From positions 5,516,859 through 5,580,858 of the forward strand of contig NZ_CP036298.1 of assembly GCF_007752135.1 (NCBI RefSeq): a DNA stretch of 64,000 nucleotides, read 5' to 3'. The notes under the pieces were generated by a model. The model saw nothing but the letters and a program-made list of their open reading frames with translations. It was not told the origin of the DNA and ran no database searches. Of the stretch, positions 9,951 through 42,100 are shown one piece after another (the stretch's first letter is position 1; every line of letters begins with the position of its first letter). The translations under genes and the position numbers were made by a program. Source of the DNA: Aureliella helgolandensis (GTDB lineage: Bacteria; Planctomycetota; Planctomycetia; Pirellulales; Pirellulaceae).

Positions 9951-9951
9951 C

Positions 9952-12806: not shown

Positions 12807-13067
12807 ATGCCCCACTACCATCGAGCTATCGAAATTCAACAGCGACTTGAAGCTGTTCTTGAATTGGTTGCGGCTGGACAATACTCCACGCCACAAATTG
12901 CCGATGAAGTAGATGTGTCGACGGCAACGATTTCACGTTGTATCGACGCTTTGAGAAAACAAGGACACCGCATCGAGTCCGTCAAGATCGACGGTCAATG
13001 GTGTTATCGGCTGCAAGGAAGTGGTCAAAAGGGTTCGTCCAATCTCGCAAAGGCAGGGAAGTCATGA
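12807..13067 (+). CDS. Small HTH transcriptional regulator, first gene of a three-gene operon.
   Basis: ATG at 12807 preceded by GGAAAAAG. HTH-like segment YSTPQIADEVDVSTATISRCIDALRKQGHRI. Stop overlaps the ATPase start (ATGA at 13064). Confidence 0.55.
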   Translation: MPHYHRAIEIQQRLEAVLELVAAGQYSTPQIADEVDVSTATISRCIDALRKQGHRIESVKIDGQWCYRLQGSGQKGSSNLAKAGKS

Positions 13068-24570: not shown

Positions 24571-24703
24571 AGCTCTAAACCTCCTTTGTCGAGGAAATAC
24601 ACACCCGCTGGCCAATCGCGAAGGTGAGCAGCCTCCGCAACCTTTTTGTGCACTCGCAGCGCCAGAGCAGCCGGCATGTCAAACGGAAAGGAACAAGTGG
24701 ATC

Positions 24704-27384: not shown

Positions 27385-29070
27385 TTATAGCTCGATCGCT
27401 TCAACTTCGGCGACGAAACGCTGGTTGTTGTCAGCGAGGAACGCACTGATGACGTTGAACACGGCGTCACTGAAGCCACCGATGTTCATGATGTCAGCTC
27501 GCTCGCAAGCTTGCGTTGTTTGATACGGCTGGATGTCGATGCAAACAAGCTTTGTGTTCGCGTCGCGGCCGGCCAACTTGCGTTGGTTGGCTACGAAGGC
27601 TTCCCACGCCGTCATTACACCAGTCGATCCGTGACGGCCCGTTCCAACCCAACTCTCGTTGTCGCTGACCAGTACAACTCCCGCAAACTTGCGTTCGCGG
27701 TGCAGCACATTGGCAGCTTCTAAAGGTAGAGCACAGTTGGTTCCACCGCCTCCGTACTTGCTCAGTCGCTCGGCGATGCTGAGGATCGAATCGCTTGGAG
27801 CGATGCGCACATCGTAAGCTTGAGTGTCGAACGGAATGACAACGCTGTCCGGGTTGCGACGCAGGATGGCTGCGGCGAACAAGGCGGCGACGTCGACGCA
27901 GCGCATCTTCGAAGTAGCTCCACGGCCACGGTTACCCGTAACGGCGCATCCCATCGAACCTGACGTATCCAGACCGATTAGGACCGGACCAGGTAATTCA
28001 GGCACGTTTCCGCACGCGATCTCGGCTGCCTTGTGCAAAGCGGCCTTGATCTTGGCTGGCATCTGGTCGTCAGTGTTCACATACGCAGCAAAGTACTGGT
28101 ATGGGAACTGACGTGAGCGAGCCACTTCAGCAGCGTCGGCGATGCGATCGGCAACATAGTCGACCATATTGTGGCACGGCGGTCCCCCGCCGTGATCTTC
28201 GGTGGGGACCACCGAGCTACGTTCAAACACATCGTGACGTAGCAGAGTGTTCAAGTTCATGCGTAGTGCCTGCGGTCCCATCTTACGAGCGATCGCAGCC
28301 CACACGCTCGGCCCCTTGGCAGCATCGGCGAGCAAGTCCCAGCGGACACCCGCTAGTTCCCCCATAACGAGCAACTGAGTCGCTTCGTCTGTGGCTGCGC
28401 GGTAGGCTGCTATTGCTTGCACCTCGGCTGGCAAGTTGGCCTCGCCGGCAGGAGTCCACTTTTCGATGGCCTTATCCGTCAACCAACCGAACAGCGCTCG
28501 ACGCTCGTCGTCCTTCGGAGTCGGACGAGCCATACGCAGGATATCGCGCAGGCTCGGCTCGTTGCCGATAGACGCCGACAGTAACTTTGCGACTGAGGCT
28601 TCGTTCAACCATCGCTGGAAGGCACGCTGCACGGAGCTCGAAAGTCCCGTTCGCGCAATTCCAGCTCGGTTCTTGAACTGGCCAGAGCGGATCATCTGGA
28701 ACGTGGTTCGCAGCACGCGTCCGTTGTCGACTACGCGATCGAACACTCGATGCATCAGTTCTGTGTTGCGGACCGAAAGGGCGACCAGCAACGCGGCTGG
28801 CATGTCCTTCATGGCTGCCTTCTGCCGAGCGTACACAGCCAGCTTGGCCAGGTACTGGTCGTCGTCGATGGTATCGATCAACTTCAGCACTTCTCCGAGC
28901 TGCGTTCCCGCAGTTGAGTAGTAGGCATCGCCAAACGTACCGGTTGCGGCAACTTGGGCCAGCGCCTGCTTCGGTTCGAGCGTGTAGGCTCGACCACCTG
29001 CTTCGTTGACAGTGTCGGCGCGTGGCAGCCGCGAAGACTTGCTTGAGAATAGTGACATGTTAGCCATGGA
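27385..29070 (-). CDS. rsr: Ro60-like ribonucleoprotein Rsr (TROVE domain plus C-terminal vWA with MIDAS).
   Basis: TROVE helical repeats, then vWA with MIDAS-like [10 protein letters not shown]...SDNESW. The start is probably the Met of [12 protein letters not shown] at 29070 or 29061 (ORF-track start 29208 is less likely). Confidence 0.75.
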
Positions 29071-29459
29071 TTCGTCCAGACTGAGCGGCAATGCGCTAGC
29101 GGCCGGTTCTGGCAATACAACGCCTGAAGAACCGACGGCTAGCGCCTCGTCGCTCAAAAAACTGTTCGACGAAGGGTAGTTGAGAAAGGCTTTCGCCATC
29201 TTAAGCAAAGATGTAATCCCAACTGGCAGTCGAACGAGAATCGCAAAGTAGATCGAAGCACTACGCTTCGTCCGCTTCCCCTATTTCATTTGTTTGTATC
29301 TATGCGAATAGAGACTCGCTTTCATCATCAAGGTTCACAGAAAAGCGACTGACGAAGTGTGACCAGAGCGCCATGACGACGTGCGTCAATTGATAGCTCC
29401 CGCTATCGCGGCTAAAGGGTGGGGATGTACTCCGAGTCGGCAGTCAGTCGTGGACGATT

Positions 29460-29825: not shown

Positions 29826-30701
29826 GGTTTTACATAGCTGTTTGAGAGAGTGGATTTGTACGTGTGCAGGTTCTTCGTCCGACGCTCGATTACTCGGCGC
29901 CGGTTGGCATAATCACGAAGAATCTGAATTGCACACGCATGGTTCACTCTTTGACAGTAATGTGGAAAACGAATGATGGTTTGAAAGCTAGCCAGACGGT
30001 GAGCTAATCGAAGTTCGCAGTGGGAAGATTCAATCCAGCTCCCTAAAAGTACTCGTCGCGATTGGAGCCATCAAAAACGGCCCGATCGCAGACAGCAGTT
30101 CTTGAAGCGTTGTCTGCTGCCACACGGGCATGGATCGTTGCGGCCTAGTTTTTCCTCGAGTAGCTTGTCGCCGTGGACAATCTGCACGCCGCGTTTGACG
30201 TTCGTCTCCGAAGGGTAGCCGCGTCGGCGTTTACTCATCGGTTCGAAAAAAGGAATCTTGAAGGTTGTTGTCGCGAATGATAGAGCTCCTAGTGAACACT
30301 GAGCGGTACGGCGCTAGCCGCCGGTTCTAGTAAGATCAGAAGAATCGAGATCAGAAGAACCGAGGGCTAGCGCCCAATCGCTCACAATAGAAAGAAAATG
30401 ACTCGCCACGACAGTTGCCTATCGCGGCGAGTCGTAACAATGCAAATGAACGAAGTGGTTTGTTCAGATACTTTTGGTGTTGGTTAATGTAATCCGAACA
30501 GGCAGTTCAAATGCCAGAGCCGACGACTGGATTCGCACCAGCATTGATCTGTTTACAAGACAGATGCCTTTCTCAGTCGAGCCACGTCGGCAAGAGCAGT
30601 CTATAGGTGTTGGCCTGTAGACTGAAGTATGAGAGACCTAAAGACGATTCGGGGTTCACGCTCGCATGTAAAGAATTCAACTTATTTGAACCATTGGTCG
30701 C

Positions 30702-31382
30702 TCAGTCTAATTTTGCCACAACCAAATATTTTTCGGTACGCGTGCTCGGTAATGCATTTGTTGCTTGCATCATCCCTGCGTGTGTTACCGTGAACCCGGC
30801 GATCTCTAGCAAGTAGGGCACTGTTGCCAGCGATTGGATGGCAGCCAGTGGCAAACAGTCAGCGAAGTCAGTGGCAAGGCTGGACCAAGCACTCCGACTG
30901 TAAAATCCATCGATGAGTAGCACGGTTCCCTGGGGCTTCAACCAATATCGCCAATTCACCATGGCCGAAAGCGGGTCGTAGAGCCCATTCGCTAATTGCC
31001 GCGAGATAATCACGTCAAAGGAGGCCGGCGGAAAAAGCGACATTTCGTCCGGCGAGTCGCAGAATCCTTGGCAGATGCGCACCGAACTCAACTCTGGCTT
31101 GCTACCCAATTTCTGTAGCATCAAAGTCGAAGGTTCAAGCGCCGTCAGTTCGAGACCGCCAATTCGAATGAGCATGCGGCACATTGCTCCGGTTCCTGCG
31201 CCCGCGTCCAGCACCGACATACCGGTCTCCAGTGCAAACACTTGGGCAATGTCGGCTAGACAGGCAAGTTCATCAACTTCGCCAATTTGCTGCGTCCAGG
31301 CTTCATATTGCTCGACGGCCGCAGCATCGTAGCTGGAAAGATGCTTGGCTCGGAATTCAGATTGAGATAAACGGTAGGTCAT
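30702..31382 (-). CDS. Class I SAM-dependent methyltransferase.
   Basis: Motif I VLDAGAGTGAMCRML; post-I acidic residue; motif II/III-like segments. Confidence 0.7.
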   Translation of the reverse strand: MTYRLSQSEFRAKHLSSYDAAAVEQYEAWTQQIGEVDELACLADIAQVFALETGMSVLDAGAGTGAMCRMLIRIGGLELTALEPSTLMLQKLGSKPELSSVRICQGFCDSPDEMSLFPPASFDVIISRQLANGLYDPLSAMVNWRYWLKPQGTVLLIDGFYSRSAWSSLATDFADCLPLAAIQSLATVPYLLEIAGFTVTHAGMMQATNALPSTRTEKYLVVAKLD

Positions 31383-31450: not shown

Positions 31451-32596
31451 TTACAGCAAGTTCATAACGCGATCGGTCAATCCCTTTTCGCCGAGTACGA
31501 TATTCATCTTGCCCGCCGTTGCGATCTTCTCGAGAACTTCCAGTTCTCGGAGTCGCATCAGCGTTGGGTTGTCGGCCAACAGCTTGGCGGTGTTGGCCTG
31601 GCTACGCATGGCAGCGGTTTCCTCGCGGCGTGCGATCAAGTTGGCTTCGGCCGCCTTCTTGGCTTCCGTTACCTTGTTCATCAGGTCCCTCATGTCGCCT
31701 GGCAGAATCACGTCCTTGATACCTACTGAGCTGACTTCCAGACCCAACACACTCGCCTGCTCGCGCACTTGCTGCTCAAGCTCCTGAGCCACATCGTCCT
31801 TGCCGGTCAAAAAGCTATCGAGTTCACGTCCGCCGATCACCGCTCGCAGCGCCAACTGCACCTCGCGGTACAACGACTGTCGAACATCGCTCGAAGCGCT
31901 CACGGCGCGACGAGCGTCCTTGATCGCGTAGGTTACGATCGCGTTCATGCGGAGCGTCACCTTGTCAAGCGTCATGATCTCCTGACCACTGACGTCAATT
32001 TGTGACTCTCGCATATCGAGCTCAACAACGCGCGAGTCGGCTGCATCCTTCCAGTATGCGTACAGACCCGGTTCGAGCTGAGCTACGAAGCGACCGTCGA
32101 TGAACAGCACACCCACGTGATCTCGTTCGACCTTGCAGATGTCCAGCAATCGAGCAGCTTCCGCGGCACGCACGATCGACTTCAAATCTTTGTGCTCGAA
32201 TCGTACGTCTCGCGAATCGACAATTTCCACTCGCACATCACGAACACCAGTCCAGTACACGTACAGTCCGGCGCCGAGAATTCGAGCGAATCGTCCATCG
32301 ATCCACACGAGCGCTCGCTGGTAGTCCTTCAAATCCAGCACTTCAGCCTTACCGGCCAATGCGCCGGACTTGACGATAACGTCCAGTTGATCGTCAGCCA
32401 GCCATGGATCTCGCTTTGAGACTACGCGAACGCGAATCTTGTTCAGAGGATCAATGATCCAGTGTGTACCAGCGTCGACCAGCCCCTTGAATTCGCCTTC
32501 GCGGAACTTCAGGCCAACTTCGTAGCTGCGAATCACAATTCTCTTTAACATGAAGCCGCCTCCTTTCACGAAAGCGAGTAACAAAATGCCGATCAA
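31451..32596 (-). CDS. SPFH/band-7 (stomatin/prohibitin-like) protein with coiled-coil C-terminus.
   Basis: N-terminal TM then SPFH core. Ala/Glu-rich heptad C-terminus (EAKKAAEANLIARREETAAMRSQANTAKLLA). Confidence 0.7.
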   Translation of the reverse strand: MIGILLLAFVKGGGFMLKRIVIRSYEVGLKFREGEFKGLVDAGTHWIIDPLNKIRVRVVSKRDPWLADDQLDVIVKSGALAGKAEVLDLKDYQRALVWIDGRFARILGAGLYVYWTGVRDVRVEIVDSRDVRFEHKDLKSIVRAAEAARLLDICKVERDHVGVLFIDGRFVAQLEPGLYAYWKDAADSRVVELDMRESQIDVSGQEIMTLDKVTLRMNAIVTYAIKDARRAVSASSDVRQSLYREVQLALRAVIGGRELDSFLTGKDDVAQELEQQVREQASVLGLEVSSVGIKDVILPGDMRDLMNKVTEAKKAAEANLIARREETAAMRSQANTAKLLADNPTLMRLRELEVLEKIATAGKMNIVLGEKGLTDRVMNLL

Positions 32597-32995
32597 TATC
32601 AGCGTAAGGTGTTTGAAGCAGAAAGAGGCCTTGAGGCACCGAATTGTTCGTCAATCACACGCGACTGCTACGGAGGAAGGCTTTGACAGAGCTCTGTCGA
32701 TAAGATTGGATCGAACTCTGGTGACAGACGCGGTAGGAACAATGCCCTACAGCCTCAGCACTTTCATTGCGATCCGCCTCTATCAACGTTGCAATGCTTC
32801 GGCAAACCTACAAGGTGAAGTCATGTGCTGCTGCGGCCAGTTTGTCGTCTACCTTCCGATTCACGCAGCGGCTTTCACCGATTCGTTAATGTTCCAGTCT
32901 ACAACTCACCAACTCGCAGCCGATCGAGCGAAACAATCGTTGCCCGCCAGCTTCTGTGGTGGACGCTTTCGCGCCCGGGTTGGTTTTCAGCCAAC

Positions 32996-33075
32996 TTGGT
33001 GCATCGACGGGAGTCGAACCCGTGACCGTCAGGTTATTAGCCTGATGCTCTACCCGCTGAGCTACTTCAATCGGT
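32996..33075 (-). tRNA. tRNA-like unit, anticodon loop reads AAU. Acceptor stem does not pair canonically (pseudo-tRNA?).
   Basis: T-arm ACGGG-AGTCGAA-CCCGT (RC), anticodon arm TCAGG-TTATTAG-CCTGA, D-arm present; 5' and 3' acceptor halves are non-complementary. Confidence 0.3.
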
Positions 33076-33318
33076 GTTGCTTTTAGAACCCGTTCACGGA
33101 ACACAGTACGCCAACTGCCGAAAGGCAGGGCAGTCTGCGCCGCCGGAACAACATCGACCAAATGCTTACTTACAAGCAGGAATGCAGTGGTTCGAACACT
33201 GTCCATCGGTTTTGGAGGCCGAGTCCGCTCCCAGGCGAACATTCCTGTATTGTGAACGGTTCGGCGCTAGCCGCCGGTATCGAAACCGAAGGCTAACGCC
33301 TATTCGCTCAGTCACAAA

Positions 33319-33984
33319 CTATGTTTCCAATTCAACGTTCCAGTACGCTTCGCTGATAAACTTGTTCCAGCTCTGGATGCGATTCATGCGCTGGGCATAG
33401 ATCGGCTTCCAATTCGGACGGACCGGTTGCTTGCGAAGCTTCATGCGAGCTTCGGCCGGCGTGCGATCTGCCTTGCGAGAATTGCAATCAACGCAAGCTA
33501 GAACGCAGTTGGTCCAGCTTGACTGGCCACCTTGAGCACGAGGAACAACGTGGTCGATCGTCAGCTCTTCGCCACCAGGCTGCTTGCTACAGTACTGGCA
33601 GGTCAGCTTGTCGCGCTTGAACACGTTGCGACGGCTGAACGTTACCGACTGCGTCGGCAATTGGTCGAACTTAGTAAGGGCGATCACTTCAGGCACGCGA
33701 AACTTCTGACGCACTGACTGAATGAACGGTTGGTCGCGATCTGGCACCAACTGGCTCCAATCGCTCCAGTCAAATAACTGGTAGTCCACCGGATCGACTA
33801 CCTTGGCGGAGTCGTTCCACAGCAGGATCAGCGCACGAGCGACCGTGGCCACATTGATCGGCTGCCAGTTGCGGTTTAGTACCAGCGTCGGAAGCTGGAG
33901 CGTCGGGCTCAAGCCCATGAAGTTCGTCTGTCGATCCAGATTTGCAGTGTTCACGTCAATTAGTCCATGTGATTTGAAGTCCAA
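33319..33984 (-). CDS. HNH endonuclease-domain protein.
   Basis: CQYCSKQPGGEELTIDHVVPRAQGG...NCVLACVDCNSRK has the HNH zinc-finger/His-Asn-His pattern. Confidence 0.7.
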   Translation of the reverse strand: MDFKSHGLIDVNTANLDRQTNFMGLSPTLQLPTLVLNRNWQPINVATVARALILLWNDSAKVVDPVDYQLFDWSDWSQLVPDRDQPFIQSVRQKFRVPEVIALTKFDQLPTQSVTFSRRNVFKRDKLTCQYCSKQPGGEELTIDHVVPRAQGGQSSWTNCVLACVDCNSRKADRTPAEARMKLRKQPVRPNWKPIYAQRMNRIQSWNKFISEAYWNVELET

Positions 33985-34097
33985 AGTGTTGAGTAAACTG
34001 TGTAAAAGGGACTCGCGTTAATAGGTGATTGTTCACGAAAATAATGCATGGAAAAACACTCAACGAAGTAATGGTCAGAGGTTAGCCCGTCCGAAAA

Positions 34098-34450
34098 TGA
34101 GCAAGCGGACGGAGCGGGGTTTGAACCCGCTCAATCTTGCGATTGACTTCCATGTACTCCGAGCCGTCAGTTGAGCATATATTGGTTCACTTGACGAAGT
34201 TGTGGACAGAGATCCGGCCCGTATATCAGTACGAGCGGGCCGGGCGAGATTCGAACCTGCTAAACCATGTACTCCGAACCGGCAGTCAAGTGAGTGTATG
34301 TTTTATGATCGACGAAGTGATGTGTCAGAGGGTTTACGGCGCTCTACCACTGAGCTACGGCGCAATGTTTCAAAACAAAGTCGCGCCGGTGGGACTCGAA
34401 CCCACGACATCCGGCTTATAATGCTGTACTCCAACTCGGCAGTCGATCAA
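34098..34450 (-). other. Three tRNA-like fragment units (T-arm plus hairpin, or D-arm half) that cannot be folded into canonical cloverleaves. Each carries the motif TGTACTCCGA-YCGGCAGTC.
   Basis: Good T-arms (GCGGG-GTTTGAA-CCCGC; GTGGG-ACTCGAA-CCCAC) and a perfect 5' half GCGCCGTAGCTCAGTGGTAGAGC, but no matching acceptor partners. Includes a GNRA-capped hairpin TCAATC-GCAA-GATTGA. Confidence 0.5.
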
Positions 34451-34451
34451 G

Positions 34452-34523
34452 TAGCCCGACCAGGAATCGAACCTGGGACTTCTCGTTAGAAGCGAGAAAT
34501 GATGTCCGTTTCACCACCGAGCT
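34452..34523 (-). tRNA. tRNA-Arg (anticodon UCU).
   Basis: Acceptor AGCUCGG/UCGGGCU (two G-U), T-arm CCAGG-UUCGAUU-CCUGG, anticodon loop CUUCUAA, discriminator A. Confidence 0.55.
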
Positions 34524-34696
34524 ATCAACAAGCGGAAGGCAAGGGAGTCGAACCCTCATCTCTAAACGAGAACCGCGTTAGCAGTGCGGCCCAGCAAACC
34601 GTATCTGGCTACCTTCCAAAACAGGCTTGAGACTGGAGACCGGAGGCTGTAGTAAAATCCCTACAGCCTCTCGCCTCAAGCCTCCCGCCTACTAAG

Positions 34697-34767
34697 AGGT
34701 TCGTTCGAGAATCGAACTCGATCTTCGTTCTTACCAAGAACGCGTGCTCCCGGAACACTTACAAACC
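34697..34767 (-). tRNA. tRNA-Thr (anticodon GGU).
   Basis: Acceptor GGUUUGU pairs ACGAACC, D-arm GUGU/GCAC, anticodon loop UUGGUAA, T-loop UUCGAUU. Confidence 0.65.
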
Positions 34768-34850
34768 CCAAAGTAATGGGCACACTCCGCTGTGCCGTGA
34801 CCTACAAAACCAGCGGACGGCAGAACGGAGTCTGCCTGCTACTATGTGAT
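34768..34850. repeat. Copy 1 of an 85-nt structured spacer element containing an imperfect inverted pair of hairpins (GGCACACTCCGCTGTGCC ... GGCAGAACGGAGTCTGCC).
   Basis: About 80% identical to 35612-35697; the two hairpins are reverse complements of each other. Confidence 0.6.
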
Positions 34851-34919
34851 CGCGGATGGAATCGAACCATCGGTCTCCTGCGTGTCATGCAGGCGTCTTA
34901 GCCGCTGGACCACGCGATC
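34847..34919 (-). tRNA. tRNA-Val (anticodon GAC).
   Basis: Perfect acceptor GAUCGCG/CGCGAUC, U8, D-arm, anticodon loop AUGACAC, T-arm GAUGG-UUCGAUU-CCAUC. Confidence 0.65.
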
Positions 34920-34929
34920 GTTTACTCAG

Positions 34930-35004
34930 TAGTCGAGACAGGAATCGAACCTGCAGAATCACCTGGCCCTCGACCAGATCGCTTTACCTGTTTGCGTACT
35001 CGAC
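34930..35004 (-). tRNA. tRNA-like unit with non-canonical anticodon loop (UCGAGGG, would read GAG); possibly pseudo.
   Basis: Acceptor and T-arm pair; C33 instead of U33 in the anticodon loop. Confidence 0.3.
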
Positions 35005-35085
35005 CGTCAGTAAGTGGCGGGTCCAGGAATCGCACCTGGCAGTCCAAGCTTATGAGGCTCGGATGAACACTAGCCCACCCGCGAG

Positions 35086-35153
35086 TTGCAAGCCCCGGAA
35101 TCGAACCAGGCGACCGACCGTATGAAAGTCGACTCAGTACCAACTAGCCTGCA
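35086..35153 (-). tRNA. tRNA-Met-like (anticodon CAU) with shortened D-arm.
   Basis: Acceptor UGCAGGC/GCUUGCA pairs, anticodon loop UUCAUAC, T-loop UUCGAUU; only about 14 nt between U8 and the anticodon stem. Confidence 0.4.
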
Positions 35154-35165
35154 GACTTTACGAAG

Positions 35166-35248
35166 TCACGAAGAGGAGATTCGAACTCCTACGCCTTGAT
35201 GGCACGACGTTCTGAGCGTCGCATGTCTACCAGTTCCATCACTTCGTG
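35166..35248 (-). tRNA. tRNA-Leu (anticodon CAG), class II with long variable arm.
   Basis: Acceptor CACGAAG, D-arm GAUGGAACUGGUAGACAU (Leu-like), anticodon loop CUCAGAA, 14-nt variable hairpin, T-loop UUCGAAU. Confidence 0.65.
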
Positions 35249-35255
35249 TTGTTAG

Positions 35256-35330
35256 TGACTCGGACCGGAATTGAACCGGCGTCGACCAGCTTGAGAGGCT
35301 AGTTGCAAGTACCAAACATCGCACCGAGCC
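35256..35330 (-). tRNA. tRNA-Glu (anticodon CUC).
   Basis: Acceptor and T-arm (UUCAAUU loop) pair; anticodon loop CUCUCAA. Confidence 0.5.
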
Positions 35331-35345
35331 ATATTGTTCGTTCAG

Positions 35346-35426
35346 TGAGCCGGGAAGGAATCGAACCTTCCGCGCCGCGAGGCAACTGTGTTACAGACAG
35401 CCTGGACTACCAAGTCCAACCGACTC
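35346..35426 (-). tRNA. tRNA-Tyr (anticodon GUA), class II.
   Basis: Acceptor GAGUCGG, D-arm GGAC-UUGGUA-GUCC, anticodon loop CUGUAAC, 14-nt variable arm, discriminator A. Confidence 0.65.
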
Positions 35427-35438
35427 GTTTCAACCAAG

Positions 35439-35512
35439 TGACGCAGGCGGGATTCGAACCCGCAATCGCGAAGGTTTAAGCTTCGCCGCTGTACCTGTTC
35501 GCGTACCGCGTC
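35439..35512 (-). tRNA. Class I (5-nt variable region) tRNA with anticodon UAA (Leu-type codon UUA).
   Basis: Acceptor GACGCGG/CUGCGUC (one G-U), anticodon arm CGAAG-CUUAAAC-CUUCG, T-arm GCGGG-UUCGAAU-CCCGC, discriminator A. Confidence 0.55.
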
Positions 35513-35535
35513 AATTAAAAACCTGTCAACTGTAG

Positions 35536-35609
35536 TGGTGAGGGTGGGACTCGAACCCACAAACACTGAGGTTTGAGCTCAGCCGCTATGCCAATTAGCG
35601 CACCGCACC
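35536..35609 (-). tRNA. Class I tRNA with anticodon CAA (Leu-type codon UUG).
   Basis: Acceptor GGUGCGG/CCUCACC (6/7), U8, D-arm CGCU/AGCG, anticodon loop CUCAAAC, 5-nt variable region, T-loop UUCGAGU. Confidence 0.55.
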
Positions 35610-35611
35610 AT

Positions 35612-35697
35612 AAAAAGTAGTAGGCACACTCCGCTGTGCCGCAACTCGTCACACTTGCGAACGGCAGAGCGGAGTCAGCCTGCCACTATTGAGTAGC
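35612..35697. repeat. Copy 2 of the 85-nt structured spacer element (see 34768-34850).
   Basis: Shares GGCACACTCCGCTGTGCCG ... ACGGCAGAGCGGAGTCAGCCTGC with copy 1. Confidence 0.6.
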
Positions 35698-35775
35698 TCG
35701 CCAAGGAATCGAACCTTGTCTAACAGTTTCGAAGACTGTCGTGCGAATCCATCACACTCGCAAGCCGTGTATCTT
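35695..35775 (-). tRNA. tRNA-Arg-like (anticodon UCG); acceptor register uncertain.
   Basis: T-arm CAAGG-UUCGAUU-CCUUG, anticodon arm ACAGU-CUUCGAA-ACUGU. Confidence 0.4.
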
Positions 35776-35794
35776 CATCTCGCATTTGTAAAAG

Positions 35795-35867
35795 TGTCCA
35801 TGTCAGGAATCGAACCTGATCTTCGACCTTCGCAGGGTCGCGTGCGCATCCACTACACTTCACAGAC
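35795..35867 (-). tRNA. tRNA-Arg (anticodon GCG).
   Basis: Acceptor GUCUGUG/CAUGGAC (two G-U), anticodon loop CUGCGAA, T-loop UUCGAUU. Confidence 0.6.
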
Positions 35868-35874
35868 ATATCAG

Positions 35875-35947
35875 TGGTGCGGGTGAGATTCGAACTCACA
35901 GACACTTGTTCCTAAGACAAGCCGCTCAGCCGTTGGCGTACCACACC
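35875..35947 (-). tRNA. Class I tRNA with anticodon UAG (Leu-type codon CUA).
   Basis: Acceptor GGUGUGG/CCGCACC, U8, anticodon arm CUUGU-CUUAGGA-ACAAG, 5-nt variable region, discriminator A. Confidence 0.55.
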
Positions 35948-35956
35948 GAATTGAAG

Positions 35957-36028
35957 AGGCGCTACCGAGATTCGAACTCGTTGTCAGCGTGTTTTGCAGA
36001 CACACCCCGCACCAAGCGGATTAGCGCC
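35957..36028 (-). tRNA. tRNA-Cys (anticodon GCA).
   Basis: Perfect acceptor GGCGCUA/UAGCGCC, discriminator U (as in Cys), anticodon loop CUGCAAA. Confidence 0.6.
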
Positions 36029-36036
36029 ACTTTCAG

Positions 36037-36109
36037 TAGTCCTGGACGGACTCGAACCGTCGATCGTCTGTTTGTAAAACAGAAGCCTTCGCCGCTAGGC
36101 CACAGGACT
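36037..36109 (-). tRNA. tRNA-Val (anticodon UAC).
   Basis: Perfect acceptor AGUCCUG/CAGGACU, U8, D-arm GCCU/AGGC, anticodon loop UUUACAA. Confidence 0.65.
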
Positions 36110-36126
36110 ATGTATTTCAAATAAGG

Positions 36127-36210
36127 CGGAAGACCAGGGACTCGAACCCCGAAGCGGTATCAGCGCCAGCCGTTTTCAAGACGGTTTCCTCATCCAGCCG
36201 GATGTCTTCC
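36127..36210 (-). tRNA. tRNA-Ser (anticodon UGA), class II.
   Basis: Perfect acceptor GGAAGAC/GUCUUCC, discriminator G, anticodon loop CUUGAAA, long variable arm. Confidence 0.6.
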
Positions 36211-36222
36211 AATAATGCAAAG

Positions 36223-36295
36223 CGCCCTTAACGAGGATCGAACTCGCCGCGAACTGATCGACAATCAGCCTCCACCACCAGATGGACTCAAGGGC
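36223..36295 (-). tRNA. tRNA-Asp (anticodon GUC).
   Basis: Acceptor GCCCUUG/UAAGGGC, discriminator G, D-arm UGGA/UCCA, anticodon loop UUGUCGA. Confidence 0.6.
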
Positions 36296-36309
36296 ATACA
36301 GTTAAACAG

Positions 36310-36383
36310 GGTGACCGATCGGAATTGAACCGACATGGACTTGGTTCACAGCCAAGTTCCTGAACCAATACAGGACGACCACC
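36310..36383 (-). tRNA. tRNA-His (anticodon GUG) with encoded G-1.
   Basis: Anticodon loop CUGUGAA; extra 5' G opposite discriminator C, the His-specific G-1:C73 pair. Confidence 0.65.
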
Positions 36384-36398
36384 ATCTTCAAAGTGCAG

Positions 36399-36472
36399 CA
36401 GCGGGGACAGGAATCGAACCTGCGACCTTCTGGTTCAGAGCCAGATGCGACTACCAACAGTTGCTACCCCGG
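36399..36472 (-). tRNA. tRNA-Gln-like (anticodon CUG); 5' acceptor strand not confidently placed.
   Basis: T-arm and anticodon arm UCUGG-CUCUGAA-CCAGA clear; discriminator G. Confidence 0.4.
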
Positions 36473-36493
36473 AATGTGAATTAAAATATAGAG

Positions 36494-36565
36494 CACGGGT
36501 GATAGGAATCGAACCTACATACCACTGCTTCAAAGGCAGCTGACTTGCCGTTAGTCGACACCCGA
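36494..36565 (-). tRNA. tRNA-Gln (anticodon UUG).
   Basis: Acceptor pairs (CACCCGA partner), U8, anticodon loop CUUUGAA, discriminator G. Confidence 0.55.
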
Positions 36566-36741
36566 ATGTTGATTTGGAGCTAAGAGTGCCATGTCGGAGT
36601 CGAACCGACCTGACCGGATTGGAAGTCTTTTTCACGTTGCTTCAGACTGGTTAAGGTTGGGGAGAGAAGCGTTCCCCAAAATCAAACTTCCCAGCGACGC
36701 GTAAAAGCCTTTGCCGCTCGGTCAATGGCACATTCATGAAG

Positions 36742-36816
36742 CTCCGGAGGCAGGAATCGAACCTGCGGCTAAGCGATTAACAGTCGCCCTCCCGTACCAG
36801 CACAGGACCCACCGGA
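36742..36816 (-). tRNA. tRNA-Asn (anticodon GUU).
   Basis: T-arm GCAGG-UUCGAUU-CCUGC, anticodon loop CUGUUAA, discriminator G, acceptor 6/7. Confidence 0.6.
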
Positions 36817-36832
36817 ATGTTTTTCACAAGAG

Positions 36833-36907
36833 TCAGGATGGTCGGATTTGAACCGACGGTCTCGTGCTCCCGAAGCACGCGGAGTAGCCAGACTTTCCCA
36901 CACCCTG
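36833..36907 (-). tRNA. tRNA-Pro (anticodon CGG).
   Basis: Acceptor CAGGGUG/CAUCCUG, U8, anticodon loop UUCGGGA, T-loop UUCAAAU. Confidence 0.6.
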
Positions 36908-36918
36908 AGTTACATTAG

Positions 36919-36992
36919 TAGCGGGAGACGGACTCGAACCATCGACCTCCAGGGTATGAACCTGGCGAGCTGACCAACTGCTCCATCCCGCG
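36919..36992 (-). tRNA. Initiator-type tRNA-fMet (anticodon CAU).
   Basis: 5' CGCGGGA with unpaired C1 opposite U72 (the initiator hallmark), anticodon arm CCAGG-UUCAUAC-CCUGG, D-arm GAGC/GCUC, discriminator A. Confidence 0.55.
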
Positions 36993-36993
36993 A

Positions 36994-37064
36994 AGCGCCT
37001 AGTGAGAATTGAACTCACGTTTTCTGCATGGCAAGCAGATGGGTTACCACTACACCATAGGCGC
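36994..37064 (-). tRNA. tRNA-Gly (anticodon GCC).
   Basis: Perfect acceptor GCGCCUA/UAGGCGC, discriminator U, anticodon loop UUGCCAU. Confidence 0.6.
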
Positions 37065-37133
37065 GATTATTTCGGATCTACCAAATTGTCAAAGATCAGT
37101 TTGTGTTCACGGAATTGTCAATTCAATGAACAG

Positions 37134-37204
37134 AGCACCGAGTGAGAATCGAACTCACGCCGCCGCTTTACGAAAGCGGTGTCATTCCACTAGACTATCA
37201 GTGC
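37134..37204 (-). tRNA. tRNA-Thr (anticodon CGU).
   Basis: Acceptor GCACUGA/UCGGUGC (one G-U), anticodon arm CCGCU-UUCGUAA-AGCGG. Confidence 0.55.
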
Positions 37205-37226
37205 TTGTGTGTTTCAGTTTTCGCAG

Positions 37227-37298
37227 TGGGACCGGTGGGAATTGAACCCACATCGTTCGGTTTAAGAGACCGATGCATTACCTTGTCTGCCACAATCC
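37227..37298 (-). tRNA. tRNA-Lys (anticodon CUU).
   Basis: Acceptor GGGAUUG/CGGUCCC (two G-U), U8, anticodon loop CUCUUAA. Confidence 0.55.
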
Positions 37299-37310
37299 CG
37301 TTTGTTTCAG

Positions 37311-37384
37311 TCGGCGTGGAGGGAATTGAACCCTCGACCTTCGTCTTATAAGGACGGTGCTCGGACCATCGAGCTGCACGCCGC
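37311..37384 (-). tRNA. tRNA-like with anticodon UAU (Ile/AUA-type). The anticodon stem has one A-C mismatch.
   Basis: Perfect acceptor CGGCGUG/CACGCCG, D-arm GCUC/GAGC, anticodon loop CUUAUAA. Confidence 0.4.
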
Positions 37385-37395
37385 TTGCTTAAGAG

Positions 37396-37467
37396 TGAGG
37401 CCGGAGAGATTCGAACTCTCACCTGGCGGATTAAAAGTCCGCAGTGCTGCCGTTACACCACAACCTC
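37396..37467 (-). tRNA. tRNA-Lys (anticodon UUU).
   Basis: Anticodon arm GCGGA-CUUUUAA-UCCGC, T-loop UUCGAAU, acceptor with G-U pairs. Confidence 0.5.
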
Positions 37468-37541
37468 GGGTTGGCTATGGCTATGCGTTTCAAACGAATT
37501 GGCAATTGCATCACGATCTCCTTAGTTGTTTGTCGTTTCAG

Positions 37542-37613
37542 TGGTAGCCCTGAGAATCGAACTCAGCGCCACTCGGTTATCAGCCGGGTATGAGCAACCA
37601 GCTCTCGACTACC
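37542..37613 (-). tRNA. tRNA-Ile (anticodon GAU).
   Basis: Anticodon loop CUGAUAA, T-arm CUGAG-UUCGAUU-CUCAG, acceptor 6/7. Confidence 0.5.
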
Positions 37614-37624
37614 ATTTCATGAAG

Positions 37625-37696
37625 TCGGGTGTGTCGGAATCGAACCGCTCTCGATCGTCCCAAACGATCTGTGCTAGCCATTACACTTCACGCCCG
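37625..37696 (-). tRNA. tRNA-Pro-like (anticodon UGG) with weak T-stem (3 bp).
   Basis: Anticodon arm GAUCG-UUUGGGA-CGAUC; acceptor 6/7. Confidence 0.4.
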
Positions 37697-37712
37697 ATAG
37701 TTGTTATGTCAG

Positions 37713-37785
37713 TGGACCTGCAGGGAGTTGAACCCTGAAGCCTTGAGTGCAAGTCAAAGCGCCGACCCGTCGGCAAGCCCATCCT
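37713..37785 (-). tRNA. tRNA-Ala-like (anticodon UGC); acceptor poorly paired and lacks G3-U70.
   Basis: T-arm CAGGG-UUCAACU-CCCUG, anticodon loop CUUGCAC. Confidence 0.35.
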
Positions 37786-37796
37786 TAGTTGCAAAG

Positions 37797-37869
37797 CGAC
37801 TCGTGTGGGATTCGAACCCAACCTGACTGGCTTGAAAGACCAGTGACCTCACCAGAAGTCGAACGAGCC
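37797..37869 (-). tRNA. tRNA-Glu (anticodon UUC).
   Basis: Acceptor GGCUCGU/ACGAGUC, discriminator G, anticodon loop CUUUCAA. Confidence 0.5.
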
Positions 37870-37971
37870 ATGTTGTTTTCTCAGTTCTGTCAGCGCGTAC
37901 CTTCCACGCAGTTGTTCATCAGGAGTTTTTGCCTAAGCCGTTTGCGACTGCTTCCTATGCATCACAGTGAG

Positions 37972-38043
37972 TGGACTGGGAGGTGCTCGAACCCTCCTCT
38001 GCGGTTCTTCAGACCGCCGCTATACCGTCTCAGCTACCAGTCC
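37972..38043 (-). tRNA. tRNA-Phe (anticodon GAA); last unit of the array.
   Basis: Perfect acceptor GGACUGG/CCAGUCC, anticodon arm GCGGU-CUGAAGA-ACCGC, T-loop UUCGAGC. Confidence 0.5.
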
Positions 38044-38440
38044 ATCTGCTTGTTACGTTGGAAATAGGCACGAAAAAACCCGGTGTTGCTCAAGGCGACA
38101 CCGGGTTAACCAACGTTGTCCGAAGACTTCAATCGGCCGAGTGTCACCTACGTTTAGGTTGCCCTAAATCAAAATTGCACGTGGACATATTCGCGTTTTG
38201 CAACACGATGCCTCTCCTGCAATTTTGATAACGTTCGGTACTCAGCCGTATTGAAGTCATTTGTCCAGTTCCGATACTTGATTTAGTTTTAGATTCCATC
38301 GCACGCTTCATTCCCGCGTGCTCACAGATATAGACGCTAAGCTGGTGCATTGGTTCGCAATAAAGTTCGCTTTTACGAAAATTGAGACACCACAATAGAC
38401 CGCTCTATTCCATTGAACGCACAAAAAACAGGAAAGTACC

Positions 38441-40154
38441 TCCCCGTAACGAACCCTCTTCATAACCATTCTCTGTTTCGGAAATGACGCAAACACAATG
38501 AGCACAAGGGGTTAGCGATTCCGAGTCCCGTTCGATCCCCTGGAGCGGACGCAACCGTTTACTGAAAACCGAACACAGAAGTGGGGGGTAGAGAAGTTCT
38601 CACAATGGAGCTTGAGCATGGGCTGACGGCGTCTCTGTCGGACGATGGAGCAGGCTAGTGACGGGCAGCCTACTCACGGAGTGCATGCTGACACCAGCCC
38701 CGCTCGAACGAACTGCTTCTGCTTGGCGCCAACGATGTTGACGATTCTCACGTCCGTCACAGCACTACTCTGGCGCCACCCTCGTCGCCCCGTTGCAGTC
38801 GCATTGCGAACTCCAATGGCCCACGTATGCTCTTCGGCTTAGCGGGGTACAAAAACCTCGCCACTTCGATTATTCCAAGATTTGCAAGGGACCAGCAGAC
38901 CAAGATGGCAGCCATCATTCATCCGCTTCTCGCACTCCTGGCCTCCCTCTCTCGACAGGAACTTGCTCGACAAGTTACCTATCTTAAAACTGAAAACCGA
39001 ATCCTGAGAAGTAAATTACCTCACAGGATTAGCCTCAGCAATCAGGAGCGTCGTACATTGGTCAAACACGGAAGGCAGTTAGGCGCTCGGATTAAGGAGT
39101 TGATCTCAATCGTCAGCTATTCCTCGTTTCGTCGATGGGTCCGTGAGCTGGAAGATGCTCCAAGTAAGCGGCCAGCGAGGAAAGACGGCAAGTGCGGACG
39201 CCCTCGTGTGGAGGAAAGTCTTAGTGATGCGATTCTTCGAGTTCGGAAGGAGACAGGCTGGGGTACACGAAGATTGTCCAGGCGATGCGGAGACTTGGGC
39301 ATAATGTCTCTCGACAGACTGTCAAGAATGTGATTGTCCAAGCAGGCCTAGGGCCGCAACCCCATGATTATCCCGATACTTGGACTGACTTTCTAAAACG
39401 ACACGCCGCCACGCTGTGGCAATGCGACTTTGCCTGCAAGAAGAAATGGACAGTGAAGGGACTTGTGGACGTCTACTTCCTCGTATTTATTCATATAGGA
39501 ACACGCCGCGTTTGGATTTCTCCTTGCACCGAGCATCCCACGGGCGAATGGAGTGCGCAGCAGGCGCGCAACTTCCTGATGCACATCCAGGACGAAGACC
39601 TTCCATGCACCCACCTGTGCCGTGACAACGACACGAAATACGTAACGGCCTTTGATTCAGTGTTTGAAGCAACCGGCTGCAAAGTCAAACGAACGACTCC
39701 CATGTCCCCCAACCTTCAGGCCCACGTCGAACGTGTAATTCAAACCATCAAGCATGAAGTGCTAAACGCCTTTTGTATTGTGAGCGACAGTCATTTGAAC
39801 CATCTGCTTCGTGTAACTCAAGATTGGTACAACTTCCGACGTGGTCACAGTGCGCGCGATCACTTGCCACCCATCCGCGACAGCGACACACCAGCGACCA
39901 TCGACTTGACGAAGCACAAGCTCATTTGTGTCGAGGAGCTCGGCGGGCATCTGAAATCCTATCGCACTGCTGCGTAGCGGAGGAAGGTGCAGCCCACACT
40001 GCTTTGTTCTATTGGATGTGAGCGAGACAGTGCTCAAGCAAAATTCTGAGCTTCTCCCTGGCTGCTCATAGCACCGCGGTCCGATACCACCAACTCTCGT
40101 CCAAGTGCAAAAATTGACGCTTGAGGCCTGTGGTGAGATTCGTGTACCGCGCGG
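38441..40154 (+). mobile_element. IS481-family insertion sequence, copy A. The transposase is frameshifted.
   Basis: About 97% identical to 44470-46188. The transposase reading frame (38905-39977) is split into ORFs 38827-39333 and 39285-39977 by loss of one G in the run GGCTGGGG(G)TACACG near 39262. Confidence 0.7.
38905..39977 (+). pseudogene. IS481-family DDE transposase (HTH plus rve integrase core), inactivated by a -1 frameshift.
   Basis: See copy B (44940-46013) for the intact 357-aa protein. Here two overlapping ORFs encode the N- and C-terminal halves. Confidence 0.7.
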
Positions 40155-41284: not shown

Positions 41285-41399
41285 TCGATTACGGTCTCTT
41301 CAGTCGGGTAACGGCGGCCATAACCCAGTCGCCGAAGTTGATTTTGATGTAACTAAACACAAGACCGGCGACTTGGGGTGAGTAGAGCGAGCTCTCTCT

Positions 41400-42100
41400 T
41401 TCAAGTTTAACATAAAGCTTGGACTTGATCGATTGAGCGTCGCCCCCTCCCAGAACCGGACGTGCGCCGTTAACGCATCCGGCTCCCCACGTTGGCCTTC
41501 CCGAAACGACAAGACGTTTCGATCTGCTATAAGGAATCAGTTGCATTGCTATCTGGCTCTGTGTCCAGACAATGCTGACGCCTTATCGCCGCCATCCGCT
41601 TGGCCGCCTTCCCTCCACCAGAGTTACCCGGCTTCAACGGTACTATGCAGCCTTCCGACTTCCTTTGCTCGTTTCCAAGCCTCTCCTTTTCAGATTGGTG
41701 ATGAATACTTGAACGAGCACAACTGCACGTGCAAGAAGCAAAGGATCTCACTGGTTGCCTTGAAAACATAATGTGTAACGCGACTGGGCCTTCGACCCCG
41801 GGTCTCTGAATATCGCTTGCCAAAACGCGATAGTCAGTATTGCCTTCCAGTATGAACAAACCTTGGGCAGGAGCCAACAGTCACCAAATTTCGGAGCTCA
41901 ATCTCGTTCAGGGCGGGACGGCCAGTCCCTACCTTTCATCCTCGCTAACTTTCTTGACTACACATCAACCGACGACTTCGGCACAGTGTCTTATACCTCG
42001 GTGCAAGCCTAGATACTGAGCCTGTGGCTAACAGCTGCTCAGTCGGGAGTTACACTCGCTAGTCATTCAAACATCTCCAGTTCGATTCGTTCATGCGATG
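41400..42100 (-). mobile_element. Degenerate, ORF-less group II intron derivative with internal deletion: retains the 5' domain I end, the RT N-terminal stub, and domains V/VI.
   Basis: Domain V GAGCCGGATGCGTTAACGGCGCACGTCCGGTTCT (41450-41490, minus strand). The 5' region is about 80% identical to the 5' region of the intact intron at 57580-57822. ORF 41527-41877 matches only the first roughly 110 aa of the RT. Confidence 0.55.

Follow-up and report, generated by a model that had tools for sequence, protein, structure and literature searches.

A large tRNA array with predicted Y-RNA-like genes, a Ro60 gene and an HNH nuclease gene on a serine-recombinase island of Aureliella helgolandensis

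Why should a planctomycete chromosome hold several dozen tRNA genes, representing every amino acid, packed on one strand of a few kilobases? The question is posed by a 64,000-nucleotide stretch of Aureliella helgolandensis (NZ_CP036298.1 of assembly GCF_007752135.1, positions 5,516,859–5,580,858; hereafter the window, whose own numbering we use throughout). An earlier note, made from the letters alone, had described here an array of about 40 tRNA and tRNA-like units in 5 kb, flanked by two HNH endonuclease genes and horizontally acquired. Our follow-up points to a larger unit. We think it probable that this is an accessory L-array on a serine-recombinase island of Pirellulaceae, in which a backup tRNA pool is joined to a Ro60–Y RNA surveillance unit and maintained by an HNH nuclease. 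The argument starts from what can be read directly: the anatomy of the module, the synteny and variable content of its relatives, covariation in the Y-RNA-like stems, the linkage of these units to Ro60 and of HNH to tRNA genes, and the many other tRNA genes of related hosts. Pool and surveillance together are the most likely interpretation of the module's function.

The 37 tRNA genes that ARAGORN calls in the window share the minus strand, and it calls no tRNA outside this module; 36 lie within 33176–38043, and a single tRNA-Thr(UGU) stands apart at 30517–30591. Adding three Y-RNA-like units (34052–34449) and a split tRNA-Gly(UCC) (36566–36740) brings the total to ~41 units in 5 kb, which bears out the earlier figure of about 40; the minus-strand predictor run that the earlier note had proposed returns a full array and not just a few genes. 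The dense block holds 35 tRNA genes in 3.6 kb (9.7 per kb), well inside the definition of a tRNA array unit (at least 20 genes, at least 2 per kb; Tran et al. 2016), and its single orientation and spacers of mostly 1–27 nt predict co-transcription. With 35 distinct anticodons, the 37 genes serve all 20 amino acids. The isoacceptors listed earlier were right in covering most amino acids; they missed Trp and fell short for Leu (five genes, not one), Ser (two), Ile (two, GAU and UAU), CAU (three) and Thr (three, including the distant UGU gene). The Rfam tRNA model gives 24 matches at its gathering score, one of them a tRNA-like fold at 33006–33065 that ARAGORN does not call. None of the array genes encodes CCA, the discriminator being followed by C and T at every end. 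Many have unusual arms (for example, Ala and CAU genes of 69–70 nt). Identity elements can be read from the sequence, G3:U70 in tRNA-Ala and an encoded G-1 with C73 in tRNA-His, and on these grounds the array tRNA genes look built to work.

The array is part of a longer co-oriented module. Read along the minus strand, it comprises a small open reading frame (ORF) with a terminator, 35 tRNA genes, three Y-RNA-like genes, the HNH gene and tRNA-Trp, followed by an optional structured RNA and SPFH gene, tRNA-Thr(UGU), a minimal Y-RNA-like gene with its terminator, a further Y-RNA-like gene and Ro60/TROVE (Table 1). The units that had been set aside as pseudo or atypical tRNAs turn out to be mostly Y-RNA-like, tied to a Ro60 gene that had gone unnoticed, together with palindromic insertions. 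The Ro60 product combines the TROVE domain (a HEAT-repeat ring) with a vWA domain, as in Ro60/Rsr, and aligns with the NCBIfam Rsr model from end to end (residues 57–592 on model positions 15–528, E = 2.5e-19), scoring 69 bits against an equivalog cut-off of 900. It is closer to the phage RNA-binding family phrog_850 (E = 1.7e-37), and among its annotated relatives the TROVE protein of Myxococcus phage Mx1 ranks first (40% identity). Homologues with 63–81% identity lie downstream of the array in 24 loci.

Five Y-RNA-like units, U1–U5, accompany the array. All have a closing stem and often a 3′ U-run, and in each the strands GACUGCCG-N4-GGAGUACAU and CUCUG-N-CA-N-ACUUCGUC pair into a bulged helix. 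They differ in what is attached to it. U1 carries a T-arm, an acceptor-like stem and a D-arm in the permuted order known from YrlA; U2 and U3 have a T-arm and a hairpin and lack the D-arm; U4 and U5 have no tRNA-like domain and are YrlB-like. U1–U3 stand in tandem between tRNA-Arg(UCU) and the HNH gene. A homologue of U4 precedes the Ro60 gene in L011, L055, L056 and other loci (L-numbers are our labels for related loci). YrlA RNAs mimic tRNA and are encoded on the strand of Ro60, no more than 4 kb from it (PMC4201824). In the window, U4 and U5 stand 133 nt and ~1.2 kb upstream of the Ro60 ORF on its strand, and the equivalents of U1–U3 are 1.4–2.8 kb upstream of Ro60 in L005, L007, L009, L019 and L081.

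The bulged stem is conserved as a structure. We aligned 30 distinct units from the window and related loci and compared them with 500 shuffles and with controls in which the pairing partner was slid. Pairing in the two-helix stem extends to 97.6% of cells, against 32–46% with a slid partner. On four measures (cells paired, cells changed on both sides, further pair types and covariation score) none of the 500 shuffles matches the observed value; compensatory changes occur at eight stem pairs, a count that 21 of 500 shuffles reach. Covariation of this kind argues for purifying selection on structure. A relaxed form of the motif has 62 matches in 1.27 Mb of related loci, every one on the array strand and none on the opposite strand, and is found in 18 of 20 loci with Ro60 against 7 of 48 without; these counts are descriptive, with no formal test, because the loci are related and L081 and L095 are one contig. 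We read U1–U5 as a divergent, predicted Y-RNA family, expected to work like Y RNA and distinct from the members of RF02553.

The nuclease gene at 33319 is equally part of the module. It lies between the 35-gene block with its Y-RNA-like units and tRNA-Trp, so that what had been taken for one of two flanking HNH genes is integral to the array. Translation of the gene probably begins at the ATG at 33918, for a product of 199 aa like that of its homologues. The protein matches Pfam HNH and HNH_5 and phrog_16726, and carries the ββα-metal core with catalytic His/Asn and a Cys4 zinc site; an AlphaFold2 (AF2) model built from 60 sequences of two clades has a predicted local distance difference test score (pLDDT) of 81.5. 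With one genome per species scanned, we found 292 relatives at 56–94% identity, and 73 positions are invariant in 30 Pirellulales sequences; with a single exception, the loci retained carry titles of Planctomycetota (mostly Pirellulales) or of unclassified bacteria. In most loci tRNA genes lie directly upstream or downstream of HNH. A large collection holds 4,330 homologous proteins, and the association extends beyond the phylum. On IMG/VR contigs as long as 390 kb, homologues with 38–52% identity mark the 3′ end of other tRNA arrays; a metagenome-assembled genome (MAG) of Myxococcota has a 24-tRNA array followed directly by an HNH homologue and then tRNA-Arg; a tRNA-Leu follows the homologue on a phage-like contig; and in phage Mx1 the homologue (35% identity) sits between two tRNA-Leu genes, ~5 kb from TROVE and a peptidyl-tRNA hydrolase. 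This is a cross-phylum family found at the 3′ end of tRNA arrays in Planctomycetota, a Myxococcota MAG and phages such as Mx1. On the Myxococcota-like contigs L100 and L101, two array-type HNH paralogues flank selA (selenocysteine synthase, the tRNA-Sec enzyme) at 5001–7743, and ARAGORN calls no tRNA near them.

The other HNH gene, at 42109–42789, was considered as a module member and rejected. Both window HNH ORFs match Pfam HNH (E = 6e-15 and 7e-12), and the second shares ~33% identity with the first over the 85-aa nuclease core only; no closer relative of it was found in the 80 genome loci screened. It lies 4 kb from the array beyond an insertion sequence (IS) element (38827–39977) and ends 57 nt before a group II intron without an ORF. 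The pair of flanking HNH genes in the earlier note therefore reduces to one associated gene and one unrelated neighbour.

Relatives of the module have a conserved order and a variable content. Dozens of Pirellulales genomes carry a syntenic array beside an orthologue of the HNH gene. In most loci with enough flank, the genes upstream of HNH run Phe–Glu–Ala–Pro–Ile–Lys–Ile(UAU)–Lys–Thr–Gly … Ser(GCU)–Arg(UCU), and tRNA-Trp and tRNA-Thr(UGU) lie 3′ of it; the window's gene order recurs in L004, L009, L014, L018, L019, L081 and others. Arrays hold from 4 to 40 tRNA genes per locus, sister arrays differ by whole genes, and four MAGs contain two copies (L044/L045, L018/L042, L014/L016 and L041/L046). 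On one IMG/VR contig (L081/L095), the array precedes genes for Ro60, a peptidyl-tRNA hydrolase of the PTH2 type, two ParB-like proteins, a serine recombinase and AbiEi; in L009 a Shedu gene comes after Ro60, and in L057 an EF-Tu gene directly follows the array HNH. Large serine recombinases recur in several related loci, and homologues of the one at 5999–7558 in the window (51–53% identity) are found a few kilobases beyond Ro60 in L009, L012 and L025. Variable content, duplicates within MAGs, a viral-classified contig and an island of recombinase and defence genes together make up the patchy distribution expected of horizontal transfer. The syntenic, variable loci, the island and the IMG/VR contig agree with the earlier reading of a horizontally acquired accessory array of the phage or integrative and conjugative element (ICE) type with an associated HNH gene. 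No phage structural genes (capsid, portal or tail) were found by Pfam or PHROGs among ORFs of at least 150 aa over most of the window, so the term prophage is unsupported for the window copy; its sole phage-like packaging signal is a terminase-nuclease-domain fragment at 4730–5782.

That fragment (minus strand; Pfam GpA_nuclease, phrog_15) comes from a terminase large subunit, lacks the ATPase domain and overlaps an ORF on the plus strand (5511–6002). It adjoins the serine recombinase, and a DUF2924 gene occupies the matching place in L009 and L081. Elsewhere in the window, a stand-alone EF-Tu gene (23389–24615, minus strand) is full-length and somewhat divergent (TIGR00485, 576 bits; cut-off 522); tRNA, secE and nusG genes are absent from its neighbourhood, and its closest relatives (L097 and L098, 87–88% identity) also stand alone. 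Immediately beyond the 5′ edge of the module, an IS element with an rve-type integrase is present in two copies (38827–39977 and 44940–46013, plus strand), the first apparently split into two ORFs. There are two group II introns, one without an ORF (41377–42052, minus strand) and a full one (55924–57787, minus strand) with a reverse transcriptase/maturase ORF (55924–57606); the latter lies downstream of a TPR gene, a paralogue of which is at 46408–46956.

Several array sites have been altered by palindromic insertions. The ends of the split tRNA-Gly(UCC) are 96–100% identical to the intact genes of L018, L014, L012 and L009, its middle 80 nt have no counterpart there, and ARAGORN makes no call at the locus; insertions at the anticodon region recur in other loci. 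Two spacers hold copies of a long hairpin with 79% identity to each other (35610–35692 and 34768–34845), and a further copy sits in a different spacer of L009, which suggests a small mobile palindromic element. Copies of another palindrome, at 34618–34695, are found in L038, L063 (five copies, both orientations) and L076. A short GC-rich palindrome in the spacer between HNH and tRNA-Trp (33253–33278, minus strand) recurs in direct and inverted form at 30300–30389, just 3′ of the terminator that follows tRNA-Thr.

Is the array the organism's main tRNA set or an addition to it? For two Pirellulaceae strains with closed genomes, Brakhagea SH449 and SH501, the reported totals are 62 and 81 tRNA genes (PMC13092639). 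Their homologous arrays account for 28 (L019) and 20 (L011) of these, leaving 34 and 61 annotated genes outside, so the possibility raised in the earlier note, that the array is the sole tRNA complement, does not hold in these relatives. Within the window array, the splitting of Gly-UCC leaves tRNA-Gly(GCC) as the sole intact Gly tRNA, without a reader for GGA or GGG; these codons account for 176 of 458 Gly codons (38%) in 15 local genes, and for 18 of the 42 in the Ro60 gene of the module itself. Stand-alone tRNAs of ordinary appearance are found outside arrays, Lys-UUU in L075 and Arg-ACG in L055, the arrays using Arg-GCG. Closed relatives, the decoding gap, variable content and stand-alone tRNAs are four agreeing lines of indirect evidence by which the reading of the window array as accessory is supported. 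Published work describes L-arrays as supernumerary operons that spread horizontally, and counts Planctomycetes among the phyla in which they occur (PMC8421152; see also PMC4758250 on arrays).

We propose that the tRNAs and Y RNAs would be transcribed as polycistronic precursors and cut by RNase P and RNase Z; because no CCA is encoded, it would be added by the host enzyme. The cell would thereby gain a second tRNA pool, divergent in sequence and serving all 20 amino acids. The Y RNAs would load the island's Ro60, and the ribonucleoprotein would inspect, or help to degrade, misfolded or damaged small RNAs, by analogy with Rsr–Y RNA–PNPase. Translation could in this way be sustained when housekeeping tRNAs are damaged or limiting, as might happen when a phage attacks, an anticodon nuclease is active or a translation inhibitor is present. 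For the HNH nuclease, the most likely role is to preserve and propagate the array: it would cut variant alleles, or those that lack the array, in a homing-type gene conversion, a proposal that already exists for the HNH genes of cyanobacterial L-arrays and of phage tRNA regions. Homing endonuclease genes occur in the tRNA regions of phages T4 and T5. Known systems offer precedents for parts of this scheme: Ro60 from a phage binds both the phage's own Y-like RNAs and the PNPase of the host (PMC12135203), and the rsr-yrlBA-rtcBA operon is reported to be induced by tRNA damage (PMC7790460). From the neighbourhoods, we infer that the recurrent defence genes (IetAS, Shedu and AbiE) and translation factors (PTH2; EF-Tu in L057) fit a role in sustaining translation under attack.

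Several observations weigh against this proposal. A more sensitive Rfam run backs further ARAGORN genes and still leaves ~13 of the 37 under the tRNA gathering score, and no promoter was recognised upstream of the array, where a terminator precedes tRNA-Phe instead. Ala-GGC, Ser-CGA and Ser-GGA are missing relative to sister arrays, which together with the split Gly-UCC indicates that the window copy is partly decaying; for this copy, the case for calling it accessory comes from its relatives and from the GGA/GGG decoding gap. About a dozen Pirellulales HNH copies stand alone, without tRNAs, in unrelated contexts, so the nuclease could be a selfish passenger; a shared synteny among these loci, sought as a sign of an ancestral chromosomal role, was not found. 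U1 matches Rfam YrlA (RF02553) at 42.2 bits (E = 4.6e-8, model positions 23–87), short of the gathering score of 69, which no sequence in the window or in the seven related loci scanned attains. The 5′ motif of the units (GCCGAG, GCCGGU, GACGGC or GCCGAC, that is, GNCGR) differs from the GNCGAA(N)G of YrlA, and on account of score and motif we file them as Y-RNA-like, outside RF02553. Finally, U1–U3 lie 4.9–5.2 kb upstream of the Ro60 ORF in the window, beyond the 4-kb range, which we put down to insertions. Some of these points would follow naturally if the whole were cryptic selfish cargo, a phage-derived remnant hitch-hiking on the island with a homing HNH, slowly decaying and of no benefit to the host. 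Such a remnant would account for the broken Gly gene, the lost isoacceptors and the palindromic insertions, for the strong variation in array size, and for HNH and Ro60 proteins whose best matches are phage families (phrog_16726, phrog_850 and phage Mx1). It would not lead one to expect gene order and tRNA sequences preserved across Pirellulales families, intact identity elements, an HNH protein with so many invariant positions, Y-RNA stems under purifying selection, or translation-related cargo that keeps returning (PTH2 in L081 and Mx1, EF-Tu beside HNH in L057), and we consider it unlikely.

That the units are degenerate tRNA dimers, pseudogenes or terminator hairpins, with Ro60 an unrelated neighbour, is suggested by their place in a tRNA array, by the sub-threshold Rfam score, by a terminator-like stem and U-run at the end of several of them, and by the warning of Chen et al. 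that tandem tRNAs can mimic YrlA (PMC4201824). The tandem-tRNA artefact does not apply to them: the part that is conserved and covaries is a non-tRNA stem (GACUGCCG...GGAGUAC / CUCUG...ACUUCGUC), bulged like Ro60-binding helices; U4 and U5 are entirely without a tRNA-like part; and U1 has no ARAGORN-called tRNA to its left or right from which a dimer could arise. As the units also co-occur strongly with Ro60 and are strictly co-oriented, we judge this explanation improbable. Still further from the evidence, and in our view very improbable, is a housekeeping role, with the array as the organism's main or only tRNA complement. Coverage of all 20 amino acids and a co-orientation like that of Firmicutes-type tRNA operons would suit such a set; the codons left without an intact array tRNA are common even in the module's genes, the closed relatives have ample tRNA genes elsewhere, content varies and copies are duplicated among close relatives, the context is that of a mobile element, and many members have atypical, low-scoring structures. 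The accessory array with its surveillance unit thus remains the preferred reading. A bolder version of it, which we put forward tentatively as a possibility, sees a self-contained mobile "translation-rescue" operon in which a phage-type Ro60 and a new, multi-member family of Y RNAs accompany tRNAs that could replace the whole set. Its Ro60–Y RNA complex would clear damaged host tRNAs, or shield and proof-read the array tRNAs, in immunity or counter-defence against tRNA-cleaving toxins and phage takeover; and the array-specific HNH protein, with its conserved but unassigned N-terminal domain, would recognise tRNA genes or tRNA-like RNA, rather than serve simple selfish homing.

The edges and optional members of the module add detail. 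Conservation extends ~350 nt upstream of tRNA-Phe in all arrays and ends beyond. This segment contains the 83-aa ORF, whose product is weakly conserved and fast-evolving (37–45% identity in L009, L014, L019 and L011); its stop is preserved as TGA or TAA and a 15-nt indel is in frame, so the ORF is probably coding. The terminator that follows it has one compensatory pair (GC in five loci, AU in five) and may be a read-through or attenuation point for the array. A riboswitch-like leader upstream of tRNA-Phe was considered and rejected, since the region is the end of the small ORF, as its stop and in-frame indel indicate, plus this terminator; attenuation is possible and unsupported. At the other end, the terminator closing the tRNA/Y RNA unit shows compensatory changes at three pairs across ten sequences. 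Between tRNA-Trp and the SPFH gene, the structured region is conserved in L001, L003, L004, L008, L015 and L027. Its tRNA-like fold (Rfam tRNA, 51.5 bits) covers model positions 7–64 only and lacks the acceptor stem, and its anticodon loop is hypervariable, differing in every locus (AAU, GUU, AGA, UUU and others), with an ~80-nt insertion in L003 and L027. The SPFH/Band 7 gene occupies an equivalent position in 12 related loci (61–87% identity), and a counterpart of the methyltransferase gene was found in none of the related loci.

Table 1 Coordinates of the module and of island genes in the window (tRNA block order 5′ to 3′ along the minus strand)
Feature	Position	Strand	Basis and remarks
Large serine recombinase of the island	5999–7558	+	Pfam Resolvase, Recombinase, Zn_ribbon_recom
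Second serine recombinase with ParB/RepB genes	8140–11502		Pfam
IetA/IetS pair (AAA ATPase and S8 subtilase)	12938–14056, 14074–16689	+	PADLOC, E = 1e-72 and 4e-60; anti-phage/anti-plasmid
Ro60/TROVE-vWA RNA-binding protein	27385–29208	-	Pfam vWA_Ro60 E = 2e-15, TROVE E = 1e-7
U4, predicted Y-RNA-like	29341–29449	-	No tRNA-like module
Intrinsic terminator closing the tRNA/Y RNA unit	30395–30433	-	15-bp stem then U-run
U5, predicted minimal Y-RNA-like unit	30442–30514	-	Directly after tRNA-Thr; conserved in 10 aligned loci; matches relaxed Y motif
tRNA-Thr(UGU), last tRNA of the module	30517–30591	-	ARAGORN; ~7 nt after Trp in loci without the SPFH insertion
S-adenosylmethionine (SAM) methyltransferase	30702–31382	-	Pfam match; window copy only
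SPFH/Band 7 protein, optional member	31451–32596	-	Pfam Band_7 E = 3e-35
Structured region, ~240 nt	32930–33175	-	Contains the tRNA-like fold 33006–33065
tRNA-Trp(CCA)	33176–33246	-	ARAGORN; always 3′ of the HNH gene, 45–90 nt after it in most loci
Array-associated HNH nuclease	33319–33918	-	N-terminal ~90-aa α/β domain and HNH core
U3, predicted Y-RNA-like	34052–34175	-	Stem module, T-arm, hairpin, 3′ U-run; fold z-score -2.9; motif search and stem covariation
U2, predicted Y-RNA-like	34190–34290	-	Stem module, T-arm, hairpin; motif search and stem covariation
U1, predicted Y-RNA-like, YrlA type	34306–34449	-	Terminal stem, bulged helix, T-arm, acceptor-like hairpin, D-arm; kept in >15 loci
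35-tRNA block	34451–38043	-	ARAGORN and Rfam; one orientation; Phe-GAA, Glu-UUC, Ala-UGC, Pro-UGG, Ile-GAU, Lys-UUU, Ile-UAU, Lys-CUU, Thr-CGU, Gly-GCC, Met-CAU, Pro-CGG, Asn-GUU, (split Gly-UCC), Gln-UUG, Gln-CUG, His-GUG, Asp-GUC, Ser-UGA, Val-UAC, Cys-GCA, Leu-UAG, Arg-GCG, Arg-UCG, Leu-CAA, Leu-UAA, Tyr-GUA, Glu-CUC, Leu-CAG, CAU, CAU, Leu-GAG, Val-GAC, Thr-GGU, Ser-GCU, Arg-UCU
Different palindromic repeat	34618–34695	-	Occupies the site of tRNA-Ala(GGC) in related arrays
Long-hairpin repeat, second copy	34768–34845	-	Val-GAC/Thr-GGU spacer; fold z-score -4.6
Long-hairpin repeat	35610–35692	-	Leu-CAA/Arg-UCG spacer; fold z-score -5.0
tRNA-Gly(UCC) split by ~80-nt hairpin insertion	36566–36740	-	Ends match intact Gly-UCC of L018, L014, L012, L009
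Intrinsic terminator (stem and T6)	38073–38107	-	29 nt before tRNA-Phe; kept in 10 loci
Small ORF, 83 aa, 5′ edge of the conserved module	38144–38395	-	Probably coding

L-arrays are widespread and poorly understood, with functional data for the Anabaena array only. Already known are L-arrays with a linked HNH gene, the occurrence of L-arrays in Planctomycetes (from surveys), and Ro60 with Y RNAs, including in phages that carry tRNAs. In the literature searched we found neither this conserved, operon-like combination on a serine-recombinase island (a complete tRNA array, a phage-type Ro60, an HNH specific to the array and as many as five Y-like RNAs of three architectures) nor the Y-like family itself or the cross-phylum HNH–tRNA association. 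In one conserved and mobile unit, the module joins three things that have been studied separately, accessory tRNA arrays, Ro60–Y RNA surveillance and a dedicated HNH nuclease, and the link between HNH and tRNA genes is common to Planctomycetota, Myxococcota and phages. The ~60 new Y-RNA-like sequences could widen the definition of bacterial Y RNA, and the cultivated, closed-genome Brakhagea strains open the roles of L-arrays and bacterial Y RNAs to direct testing. If the module does protect translation from tRNA-targeting attack, it would represent a new class of defence-island cargo.

Among known systems, the cyanobacterial L-arrays offer the first comparison (Anabaena sp. PCC 7120 trn operon with HNH gene all8564; Santamaria-Gomez et al. 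2021, PMC8421152). Both are long, co-oriented and horizontally spreading, have a linked HNH endonuclease gene and lie in a neighbourhood rich in RNA-processing and translation genes, and the window array is probably supernumerary as well. The Anabaena array is silent until translation is impaired and is co-regulated with its linked HNH gene and rtcB (PMC8421152). There the HNH gene is upstream and the partners are RtcB and DpsA, whereas in the window HNH stands inside the module at the 3′ end and the partner is the Ro60/Y-RNA unit. Anabaena arrays have 9-nt promoter repeats; none are expected in the window array, and no search for them was made. Array units on ICEs and plasmids (Acidithiobacillus and Mycobacterium; Tran et al. 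2016, PMC4758250; Morgado & Vicente 2019, PMC6515697) likewise have at least 20 genes at a density of at least 2 per kb on a mobile element, but belong to a different lineage, and a Ro60/Y RNA module is not reported for them in the literature searched.

On the Ro60 side, the window units resemble those of Rsr–YrlA/YrlB systems (Salmonella, M. smegmatis and D. radiodurans; RF02553) in lying near a Ro60 orthologue on the same strand and in having a closing stem with a bulged helix, and U1 shares the permuted tRNA-like domain of YrlA. They differ in falling below the family threshold, in their 5′ motif, in numbering up to five per locus in three architectures, and in being embedded in a tRNA operon and not in an rsr-rtcBA operon; the protein, too, is far from the Rsr cut-off. 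Ro60 with Y-like RNAs is also known from mycobacteriophages, CcrColossus, phage G and phiLo (PMC4201824, PMC12135203). Myxococcus phage Mx1 (OR576727.2) comes close in gene content, with TROVE/Ro60, peptidyl-tRNA hydrolase and HNH genes among tRNA genes within 7 kb. A motif search found no Y unit in Mx1, and its tRNAs are dispersed, whereas the window copy is a 35-gene array in a bacterial chromosome island in which no phage structural genes were found, and it shares with Mx1 the pairing of a phage-type Ro60 with an HNH gene set among tRNA genes.

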